Virus record (IMG/VR): IMGVR_UViG_2671180674_000015
Coordinates: 1-17,240 of that record
Reading direction: 5' to 3' (one strand)
Source of the DNA: a virus
Lineage: Duplodnaviria > Heunggongvirae > Uroviricota > Caudoviricetes
Length of the DNA: 17,240 bases
In this document: positions 2,433 through 12,611 of the stretch, piece after piece
How positions within the stretch are numbered: position 1 is the first letter of the stretch
Layout: each line of letters begins with the position of its first letter
Notes under the pieces: model-generated
Database searches by the model: none
What the model was told of the DNA's origin: nothing
What the model saw: the letters and a program-made list of their open reading frames with translations, nothing else
Made by a program: the position numbers and the translations under genes

Positions 2433-2926
2433 TGCTGACCCCACAAACAGATTTCACGCTCAATCTCACGACGAGTCATGAGACCTTTCCATTGCTTACC
2501 GCCAGCATATGTCCAGCGACGTAGCTGATCACATGCGCCTTTGATATCGCCCTGGTTTATTTTGCGAAGAAGCGTCGATGTTCTGAAATTGCCAGCACCC
2601 ACGTTGTAAACGAATGAGTAAAGAGCGCCGCGCGTTGTTTCCGGTATATCGACTTTGATGTACGGGTTAATTTGTCTGGCGACAGTGGCAAGGTCTTTAT
2701 TCAAGAGTGCTTTGCATTCTGCTTTGGTATACGTTTTACCGAGCATGATGTCTTTTCCGGTGTGTCCGTGACATACAGTCCATACGCCAACGATATCTTT
2801 GTATGGTACGTAGCTGACACCTTCCAGACCATCGTTACCACTTGGGCCAGTGATTAACACTGATGCTATAGCAATTGCTCCGCCACCAATAGCAGCAGCA
2901 ACGGCTTTTCGTAATGATGGAGGCAT
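2429..2926 (-). CDS. R: SAR endolysin (T4-lysozyme-like muramidase, phage 21 R-type)
   Basis: 165 aa. N-terminal Gly/Ala-rich signal-anchor-release segment [16 protein letters not shown], followed by an E...D...T catalytic triad pattern. Start overlaps the holin stop. Confidence 0.85.
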
Positions 2927-3141
2927 TATTCACCTCTCGCAGCCTTGCGCTTATCTTCTTTAATCTTGAAATAAAGGTTTGTCAGGTACGTCAGCAGGCC
3001 AAATACCAGGCTACCCAGCACACCTATTGCTGCCCACTGTGAGGGCGTGACTTTATCGAGCAGCTGTAAAAACCAGTACCCGGCACTACCTGCTGAGGTG
3101 CCATAGGCGACACCCGTTGTTAACTTATCCATGGATTTCAT
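2926..3141 (-). CDS. S: Class II holin / pinholin (S21-type) with dual start motif
   Basis: 71 aa, MKSMDK dual-start (Met1/Met4) giving antiholin and holin forms, two TM segments. Sits immediately upstream of the SAR endolysin. Confidence 0.85.
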
Positions 3142-3257
3142 AACCCCACCTCGCAGACAAAGCGGGTGTAAATTGAGGGAATACTACGAAACGTAACAGA
3201 CTCGGAGTCAGTGAATAACTCAGGTATTGGGTTATCAGCTAATATCGAGACTCAAAA

Positions 3258-3292
3258 AATGGAAAAACCCGCTCGACGGCGGGTTTAAGCTG
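3258..3292 (-). terminator. Intrinsic terminator on the minus strand just upstream of the holin gene
   Basis: Minus-strand read AAACCCGC-CGTCGA-GCGGGTTT followed by TTCCATTTTTTG. Confidence 0.5.
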
Positions 3293-3714
3293 TGTGACGA
3301 AGTAACCACTCTTAACAGCATAACCAATTTTTTACGTACGTAAACCACTAAATGATATTTGCGAGAATGCTACCGAGTATTGAAAACACCACTACAAATA
3401 CATAAGCAAATCTCAACAAATAACCAACAAATAATTTCCAGCGTTATTTTTAGTCAATTTAAATTGAACCTTCAAATTATAGAGCACTTATAAATAACAG
3501 CCATTAATATAAATTGGCTAATAGATTTATTTTTATTCAGTCAAGAGCCATGAATAGGATTCGATAGAAAAAAGTTCAGATAAAAATAGAGATCTACTTC
3601 ACAAATCAAACGAGAAACCAAAACTTACATCTTGAAATATTCACATTGATTAGATGAATATTTATCGCGCAGTGACATCATTTTTTAATAATAGTTCAAA
3701 AAAAAGGGCTCACG

Positions 3715-4797
3715 ATGAAAAAATTAACAGTGGCAATTTCTGCTGTAGCTGCATCAGTACTGATGGCGATGTCTGCTCAGGCAGCTGAAATTTATAATAA
3801 AGACAGTAACAAGCTGGATCTGTACGGGAAAGTTAATGCTAAGCACTACTTCTCCTCTAATGATGCAGATGATGGTGATACTACTTATGCCCGTCTTGGC
3901 TTCAAAGGTGAAACCCAAATCAACGATCAACTGACTGGTTTCGGTCAGTGGGAATATGAATTCAAAGGCAACCGCGCTGAATCTCAAGGTTCCTCCAAAG
4001 ATAAAACCCGTCTTGCCTTCGCTGGCCTGAAATTCGGTGACTACGGCTCCATCGATTACGGCCGTAACTACGGTGTAGCATACGACATCGGTGCATGGAC
4101 CGACGTTCTGCCAGAATTCGGTGGCGATACCTGGACCCAAACAGATGTATTCATGACTGGTCGCACCACAGGTGTTGCAACTTATCGTAACAACGACTTC
4201 TTTGGTCTGGTTGATGGCCTGAACTTTGCAGCTCAGTATCAGGGCAAAAATGACCGAAATGAAGTAACTGAAGCTAATGGCGATGGTTTCGGTTTCTCAA
4301 CTACTTATGAGTATGAAGGATTCGGCGTGGGTGCAACCTATGCTAAATCTGATCGCACTAATAATCAGGTTATCTACGGTAACAACGGTCTGAATGCTTC
4401 TGGTCAAAATGCTGAAGTATGGGCAGCTGGTCTGAAATATGATGCGAACAACATCTATCTGGCCACCACCTATTCTGAAACCCAGAACATGACTGTTTTT
4501 GGTAATAACCATATTGCCAACAAAGCACAAAACTTCGAAGCTGTTGCACAATATCAGTTCGACTTCGGCCTGCGTCCATCCGTTGCTTACCTGCATTCTA
4601 AAGGAAAAGACTTGGGTGTTTGGGGTGATCAGGACCTGGTTGAATATGTTGATGTAGGTGCAACCTATTACTTCAACAAAAATATGTCCACTTTTGTTGA
4701 CTACAAAATCAACCTGATTGATAAGAGCGATTTCACGAAAGCATCTGGCGTTGCTACCGATGATATCGTTGCTGTAGGTATGGTTTACCAGTTCTAA
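3715..4797 (+). CDS. nmpC: Outer-membrane general porin, OmpC/OmpF family (NmpC/Lc-like prophage porin moron)
   Basis: 360 aa, signal peptide ending AQA|AE, porin-type beta-barrel with C-terminal Phe (VGMVYQF). Located antisense between Q and the holin, as nmpC is in DLP12 and lc in PA-2. Confidence 0.8.
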
Positions 4798-4811
4798 TTT
4801 GATTACTAAAA

Positions 4812-4893
4812 GATATGTTGTGGGAGGCTTTGCCTCCCCAACATATAAGTGGCTCCCTCAAGCCACTTCCTTTAGAAGCACAACCTTGCTTCT
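4812..4893. other. Cluster of three tandem stem-loops between the porin and Q 3' ends
   Basis: H1 ATATGTTGTGGGAGGC/ttt/GCCTCCCCAACATAT, H2 AAGTGGCT/ccctca/AGCCACTT, H3 AGAAGC/acaacctt/GCTTCT. On the minus strand H1 is followed by CTTTT (tR'-like). Confidence 0.45.
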
Positions 4894-4933
4894 AACTATA
4901 TAAACCTTCTGTTATATATTACCCTTTATTTTT

Positions 4934-4968
4934 GGGGGCGTTTCAACGCCCCATTTTTAATAACTTTT
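4934..4968 (+). terminator. Probable intrinsic terminator downstream of the porin gene
   Basis: GGGGCG/tttcaa/CGCCCC followed by ATTTTTAATAACTTTT on the plus strand. Confidence 0.45.
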
Positions 4969-4985
4969 AGTAAATAATTGGCGTA

Positions 4986-5369
4986 TTAATTAGAGTTATT
5001 AACAACGATATCCATCTCTAACCGGATATCTAATGCCATTAACATCCCTTCAATTATGCCCTCAGCCTTTTGTAACCTTTTCCCGATATAACCATCAGAG
5101 CAGCAATGCTTACCTGCCAGTGACATGAATGTCATACCGACTATATAATAATCTACTAATAAATCGTGCAAATCGCTGTTGTTCTTTTTCAGACGGGCCA
5201 TGCACCCGCAAATGATCATCGCGTCATCGTCACAACATTGCGGGCGAGATTTTACTTTTGAAGGAATTAATCCCTTAAAACCGGCGGCAATGGACGACCA
5301 GGTCACATCTTCATGATTATTAGCCGCCCACGCTCCCCAACGCTCAAGAACCATCTGAATATCACGCAT
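4986..5369 (-). CDS. Q: Late-gene antiterminator Q (phage 82 / DLP12 QuuD-type)
   Basis: ATG at 5369 (MRDIQ...) preceded by GGAG. The track's longer form starts at a TTG. Cys-rich putative zinc-binding region [12 protein letters not shown]. Sits between ylcG and the late/lysis region. Confidence 0.75.
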
Positions 5370-12374: not shown

Positions 12375-12446
12375 GCGCTGCGTTACCGCATACCAATAAC
12401 GCTTCACTCGAGGCGTTTTTCGTTATGTATAAATAAGGAGCACACC

Positions 12447-12611
12447 ATGCAATATGCCATTGCAGGGTGGCCTGTTGCTGGCTGCTCTTCCGAATCTTTA
12501 CTTGAACGAATCACCCGTAAATTACGTGACGGATGGAAACGCCTTATCGACATACTTAATCAGCCAGGAGTCCCAAAAAATGGATCAAACACTTATGGCT
12601 ATCCAGACTAA
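12447..12611 (+). CDS. cIII: CIII (FtsH inhibitor that stabilises CII)
   Basis: 54 aa, [54 protein letters not shown]. Below the ORF-track cut-off. Confidence 0.8.
   Translation: MQYAIAGWPVAGCSSESLLERITRKLRDGWKRLIDILNQPGVPKNGSNTYGYPD

Follow-up and report, generated by a model that had tools for sequence, protein, structure and literature searches.

Hairpins downstream of a prophage porin gene are best explained as the known IpeX RNA, which carries an antisense match to the start regions of ompC and ompF

Several families of small RNAs are linked to porins or to late-gene control in enterobacteria and their phages. The closest to the locus considered here is IpeX, which reviews citing the original work (PMC12197685, PMC5069750, PMC8065619) attribute to Castillo-Keller, Vuong and Misra (2006, J Bacteriol 188:576) and describe as a 167-nt RNA within the nmpC/lc porin transcript of prophage DLP12 and phage PA-2. 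According to reviews, IpeX is made from the phage porin promoter, is processed from the longer porin transcript and represses the host porins OmpC and OmpF post-transcriptionally. The same kind of source denies any complementarity to ompC or ompF and calls the regulation indirect, and since 2006 its mechanism has been given as either non-pairing or unknown. IpeX is also described as Hfq-independent (PMC8313858), and the RNA has been seen in K-12 transcriptomes. MicF and MicC, likewise linked to another porin gene, base-pair imperfectly across the ribosome-binding region of host porin mRNAs, but are separate genes with their own promoters. In the general class of sRNAs derived from 3′ UTRs, the terminator is shared with the parent mRNA, and its hairpin is directly preceded by a conserved seed that stays unpaired. 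Finally, the tR′ leaders represented by lambda 6S and StxS (74 nt) are short structured RNAs with a terminator, encoded beside Q.

The window (the whole stretch of DNA that was analysed, 17,240 nucleotides) is a lambdoid prophage. Its porin gene and its Q antiterminator gene are convergent and are separated by a gap of 188 bp, between the porin stop at 4797 and the Q stop at 4986. Identical or near-identical E. coli loci are annotated as quuD plus porin, with the RefSeq label ‘porin OmpC/porin’; the K-12 locus is nmpC, in the quuD-nmpC-essD-rrrD-rzpD region of the cryptic prophage DLP12, and that of PA-2 is lc. Besides PA-2, many inducible lambdoid phages share the region. A 401-bp query around the gap detected the locus in 2504 of 5426 complete E. 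coli genomes, at a median of one and a maximum of three copies per genome. Identity over window positions 4760-5030 is 95.96% with DLP12 of K-12 MG1655 and 95.85% with PA-2.

The preliminary description had reported four stem-loops in this gap, and the repeat finder located all of them (Table 1, H1-H4). They lie between an nmpC/lc-type porin stop and a Rho-independent terminator, at the same locus as IpeX of DLP12 and PA-2, with the same flanking genes (porin and QuuD-type Q) and no difference at the level of the element. The cluster is thus very probably the 3′ UTR of the prophage porin transcript, i.e. the known IpeX RNA, which, together with the mode of action proposed below, gives the best explanation of the data. 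The ipeX element has already been described and the hairpins themselves are no discovery; what is added here is their structural covariation, the strand assignment, the occurrence in P1-like phages and the antisense match to ompC and ompF. Annotation resources are silent on the element: Rfam returned no family for the gap region, either at the gathering threshold or at E ≤ 5, a tRNA search of the gap found none, the MG1655 RefSeq record has no ncRNA feature at the ipeX position and a published supplement of E. coli 3′-end mapping has no ipeX, quuD or nmpC entry.

Table 1. Coordinates of the features discussed (window positions unless a phage locus is named)
Feature	Position	Strand	Basis
Porin 3′ UTR (ipeX region), stop codon to terminator U-run	4798..4959	+	~96% identity to K-12 DLP12 and PA-2; literature
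H1, long bulged hairpin, 8 + 7 bp	4813..4846	+	Repeat finder, folding, RNAalifold
H2, 8-bp perfect hairpin, arms 4847-4854/4861-4868	4847..4868	+	Repeat finder, RNAalifold
H3, 9-bp perfect hairpin, arms 4872-4880/4887-4895	4872..4895	+	Repeat finder, RNAalifold
A+U-rich stretch unpaired in the consensus fold, proposed seed	4896..4934	+	RNAalifold; duplex and alignment tests
H4 + U-run, Rho-independent terminator of the porin/IpeX transcript	4935..4959	+ only	Terminator scan
10-bp inverted repeat TTACTAAAAG / CTTTTAGTAA bracketing the cluster	4803-4812/4964-4973		Single-sequence folds
Prophage porin gene, nmpC/lc family, 360 aa	3715..4797	+	ORF list; annotation of matching loci
Q antiterminator gene, QuuD type, 127 aa, convergent with porin	4986..5369	-	ORF list; PF06530 (Pfam)
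Probable late promoter, A-run start ~3333, ~71-nt leader, intrinsic terminator (stem 3286-3265 + U-run)	3255..3365	-	Terminator scan; H-19B homology
Holin gene	3141-2926	-	ORF list
Lysozyme gene	2926-2429	-	ORF list
Rz gene	2444-1971	-	ORF list
P1-like porin + IpeX-like 3′ UTR	L007 (P7) 983-2330; L011 (JL22) 486-1830; L036; L107

In detail, H1 begins 15 nt past the porin stop codon and lies, as stated earlier, about 140 nt from the Q stop. Its outer arms (4813-4823/4836-4846) match at 91%, its inner arms GGGAGGC/GCCTCCC (4822-4828/4832-4838) pair perfectly, and one T is bulged. H2 carries a conserved loop, CCCTCA. The 8-bp arms of H4 (4935-4942/4945-4952) are perfect and G+C-rich and are followed by ATTTTTAA. 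Folding of the gap (4798-4985) is far beyond chance. The + strand reaches -70.5 kcal/mol against -34.9 +/- 3.7 in dinucleotide shuffles (z -9.7, 0 of 200 shuffles), and the - strand -71.6 kcal/mol against a shuffle mean of about -39 (z -8.1, 0 of 200). The RNAalifold consensus recovered H1-H4 independently. Two elements had been missed by the preliminary description, a weak A+T hairpin at 4897-4918 and the inverted repeat that brackets the cluster. The latter closes a multiloop in single-sequence folds of both strands; its 3′ arm is positioned past the terminator U-run. Across 43 variants it is only 85% paired with zero compensatory changes; covariation thus gives the 10-bp stem no support, and its significance is doubtful.

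Conservation was examined in an alignment of 43 distinct variants, drawn from phage records and viral contigs as well as E. coli genomes. The variants include four diverged lineages: the window/K-12/PA-2 group, L064, the P1-like phages (P7, JL22, L036 and L107) and L116. The porins of L064 and L116 are 88% and 63% identical to that of the window. A contig scan with a pattern combining hairpins and conserved box matched E. coli only and added no diversity. Among the 49 pairs tested (H1-H4 and the bracketing stem), 94.6% of cells are paired; shifting the 3′ partners along the alignment by one to three columns brings this down to 39-49%. Two-sided, compensatory changes occur at 13 pairs, compared with 4.8 +/- 1.5 in column shuffles, none of 500 reaching the observed number. 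Seven of these pairs are in H1, two in H2 (e.g. AAGTGGCT/AGCCACTT to AGGTGGCA/TGCCACCT in P7) and four in H3, where one pair is G-U in 10 variants. The sequence of H3 can even be wholly replaced with the hairpin kept, as in P7 (GAAGAGGCAAT/ATTGCCTCTTC) and L116 (CGTTGGA/TCCAACG). At the position of H4, each divergent lineage has its own version of a G+C hairpin followed by a U-run.

The alignment also discriminates between the strands. One-sided transitions that keep a G-U pair number 33 cells at 14 positions when read on the + strand and only 2 cells at 2 positions on the - strand; relatedness of the sequences inflates the cell counts, and the comparison by position (14 versus 2) was used. 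This wobble pattern points to selection on the porin-sense RNA. A promoter scan of 2800-5100 found no separate + strand promoter, and the cluster is probably transcribed as the tail of the porin mRNA. H4 is the porin terminator, in agreement with the earlier suggestion for the last hairpin: the + strand scan calls GGGGCGTTTCAACGCCCC, with 7 pairs (6 G-C), a loop of 4 and the tail ATTTTTAATA, as the sole terminator after the porin stop. Read on the - strand, H4 is followed by CAAAAATAAA and fails as a terminator. IpeX shares the layout of the general class of 3′ UTR-derived sRNAs, with three extra conserved hairpins 5′ of the putative seed.

Linkage follows the porin. In the P1-like phages P7, JL22, L036 and L107, the porin, H1-H4 and an own terminator lie beside ssb and Q is absent. 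In L116 the porin and H1-H4 are adjacent to a different Q allele, and at loci elsewhere they are found beside a QuuD-type Q. Conversely, H1-H4 are absent after the related Q genes of Lambda_2E9 and H-19B, neither of which has the porin. Since the hairpins occur without Q, and other sequences follow Q where there is no porin, the hairpins belong to the porin cassette and not to the Q module. At the P1-like loci, weak similarity to the window extends past the terminator toward the last Q codons, a hint that the cassette may have been acquired from a lambdoid phage. A further locus (L010, E. coli Z1323PEC0014, 1596-2098) keeps the porin and the hairpin cluster with Q mostly missing (~31 residues match), followed by ybcM, and is a case of prophage decay retaining the porin/IpeX unit.

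Other readings of the cluster were weighed against IpeX. That it is a dispersed repeat of the REP/BIME or miniature transposon kind, or a set of chance palindromes, can practically be discounted. The bracketing 10-bp inverted repeat would suit a mobile element, but lacks covariation, and the element does not occur in many copies: it has a median of one place and a maximum of three per genome, every examined locus being in this prophage or phage context, while a fold z-score of -9.7 argues against chance. Unlikely, but to be taken more seriously, is a bidirectional terminator block insulating the convergent Q and porin units, in which H4 stops porin transcription and H1 halts transcripts that run on from the Q side on the - strand. 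The convergent genes and the called H4 terminator fit this scheme, as does the short U-run that follows H1 on the - strand, CUUUUAGU in the window and CUUUUUCG in K-12, and such a block could coexist with an IpeX role. However, H1, to which the preliminary description gave a tR′-like terminator character, is called by the terminator scan on the - strand neither in the window nor in K-12. In addition, the base of the H1 stem beside the U-run is A-U rich, the U-run is lost in P7 and L116, U-runs are absent from H2 and H3 on both strands and the wobble pairs fit the + strand. A weak secondary role of H1, halting Q-side read-through before it enters the porin gene in antisense, is conceivable alongside IpeX.

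The remaining proposal of the preliminary description, a 6S-like late leader RNA, was taken as a short 6S- or StxS-like RNA starting at a pR′ just below Q and ending at H1 as tR′, and is very improbable for this gap. Its appeal lies in the position immediately downstream of Q and in the - strand U-run of H1. Yet the cluster is on the wrong strand for such a leader and travels with the porin, unlinked to Q, and a promoter scan of 4985-4798 (-) found no sigma-70-like promoter in the window or in K-12. A candidate pR′ combined TTGAAA (4946-4941), TAATAT (4921-4916) and the -10-like TATAGT (4900-4895); it was rejected, for the -10-like stretch GGTAATATATAAC is kept in the Q-less P1-like phages and matches an inverted porin leader, and the published features of the phage 82 pR′ (an AAA start, an extended -10-like element and GCC at +15-17) are missing. 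No phage 82 record was among the Q matches, and a sequence-fragment search for phage 82 pR′/t82 gave unrelated matches only. Porin-less relatives of Q carry other leaders directly after the gene. In Lambda_2E9, whose Q is 88% identical, homology to the window stops at 5010, and Q is directly followed by TTGCTG-17-TAATGT, an AAA start, a TGtTAGAAT element and a terminator.

A better candidate for the late leader is found on the far side of the porin, ~120 nt upstream of the holin gene, where a clear late-strand terminator lies (Table 1). Window positions 3345-3255 (-) are ~75% identical to the sequence right after Q in H-19B, which reads TTTACGATCGTAAAAATCTGCATATCATGATAAGAGTGGTTAC...AACCCGCCGATGCGCGGGTTTTTTT and spans 72-74 nt from A-run to U-run, in agreement with the 74 nt of StxS. 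The spacer motif TATCATT(T)AG is common to this promoter and to the Q-adjacent promoter of Lambda_2E9, and L064 retains the module at the same place. The segment is thus likely to be the true pR′/tR′ (StxS-like) module of the prophage. The porin/IpeX cassette appears to have been inserted between Q and its late promoter. In a large group of prophages, the late promoter and tR′ would then lie beyond the porin cassette and not beside Q, with the porin and IpeX between Q and its site of action. P1-like plasmids and phages have acquired this cassette too.

The region between H3 and H4 gives a clue to how IpeX may act. Within the unpaired stretch, the best-conserved box of the UTR, TGTTATATATTACCCTTT (4910-4927, written also TGTTATNTATTACCNTTT), is invariant across lineages; taken as its reverse complement, it is similar to the translation initiation regions of porins. 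Whole-RNA duplex folding without constraints gave meaningless long duplexes, and tests were made at the level of segments. The duplex of 4898-4932 with ompC -32..-1 has an energy of -26.7 kcal/mol, compared with -11.7 +/- 2.9 in shuffles (0 of 500). Among 22436 background windows of 75 nt, taken from 453 kb, no more than 14 attain this value. By Smith-Waterman alignment, the match to ompC -31..-3 scores 32, equalled by 3 of 2000 dinucleotide shuffles. The duplex is rich in A+U, includes an internal loop of 4-5 nt and involves a segment of which part can form the weak 4897-4918 hairpin. With ompF the window segment reaches -18.8 kcal/mol, which is marginal (19 of 500 shuffles), and it pairs poorly with the start region of its own porin (-14.3 kcal/mol). 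Comparable matches are found in the other lineages, i.e. L116 with ompC (-45.1 kcal/mol), P7 with ompF (-34.5 kcal/mol) and L064 with ompC (-23.4 kcal/mol), each reached by none of 300 shuffles; as the lineages are related, these are not independent events. In all four, the similarity is collinear with ompC -44 to +21. IpeX thus resembles MicF and MicC in having complementarity to the ribosome-binding region of a target beyond chance; the likeness concerns the mode of action and not homology, the sequences being unrelated and IpeX residing in the 3′ UTR of a phage porin mRNA.

Read on the - strand, 4896-4952 has the look of a porin 5′ leader in decay, Shine-Dalgarno sequence included, when aligned with K-12 ompC -44..+21 (L136), and the P7 counterpart shows an ATG followed by AAGTTAAA. 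These resemblances suggest that the H3-H4 interval may have arisen by inverted duplication of the start of a porin gene. It is tempting to propose, with moderate confidence, that IpeX is a true antisense RNA, in which an inverted enterobacterial porin 5′ leader with its first codons has become part of the phage porin 3′ UTR, so that the RNA silences OmpC and OmpF and spares its own porin. In such a mechanism, the + strand RNA would be produced as the tail of the porin transcript, ending at the intrinsic terminator H4. Expression of the porin, e.g. during lysogeny, would lower OmpC and OmpF synthesis, through the mRNA tail as such or through a fragment derived from it by processing. The segment 4896-4934 would pair with ompC mRNA over the Shine-Dalgarno sequence and start (-32 to -1), less strongly with the corresponding part of ompF, and so block translation. 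H1-H3 would be structural modules that stabilize or delimit the RNA and leave the seed accessible; their role may lie in stability, as a processing boundary or in protein binding.

The repression of OmpC and OmpF is taken from the literature, and the computed complementarity is consistent with it. The pairing itself is our inference; on the strength of the complementarity to ompC/ompF, antisense occlusion of the ribosome-binding site is preferred. Against this stands the view that IpeX acts without base pairing, its hairpins titrating, for instance, an RNA-binding protein or an RNase, with the antisense similarity as a relic. The reviews, which deny complementarity and hold that the mechanism is not simple pairing, speak for it, as do three conserved, covarying hairpins and the conserved H2 loop, which have no assigned role; the antisense matches could indeed be the decaying trace of an inverted porin leader. 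A mere relic, however, sits poorly with a strong match to the known genetic target, one that stands out statistically in four lineages, and with an antisense box that is both the best-conserved part of the UTR and unpaired in the consensus fold. Action without pairing is accordingly regarded as improbable, though with a probability that deserves attention.

If true, an antisense IpeX would overturn the textbook view that the RNA has no complementarity to its targets, and would explain how a lysogen exchanges the OmpC receptor for the phage porin. The complementarity makes the antisense mechanism directly testable. Exchange of porins affects antibiotic permeability as well as the availability of phage receptors, and the locus concerns about half of sequenced E. 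coli.

Some further elements of the window lie outside the cluster. A strong promoter-like site, GTGACA-18-TATAAT (11 of 12), is found at 5120-5149 (+), antisense within Q and directed away from the porin. In the 3′ end of Q, an imperfect palindrome GATATCC...GGATATC (5007-5030) is terminator-like on the - strand in a simple scan, probably by coincidence. At a distance from the gap, positions 12434-12492 (+) match the lambda cIII thermoregulator element of Rfam (RF01804) with 84 bits and an E value of 1.8e-19.
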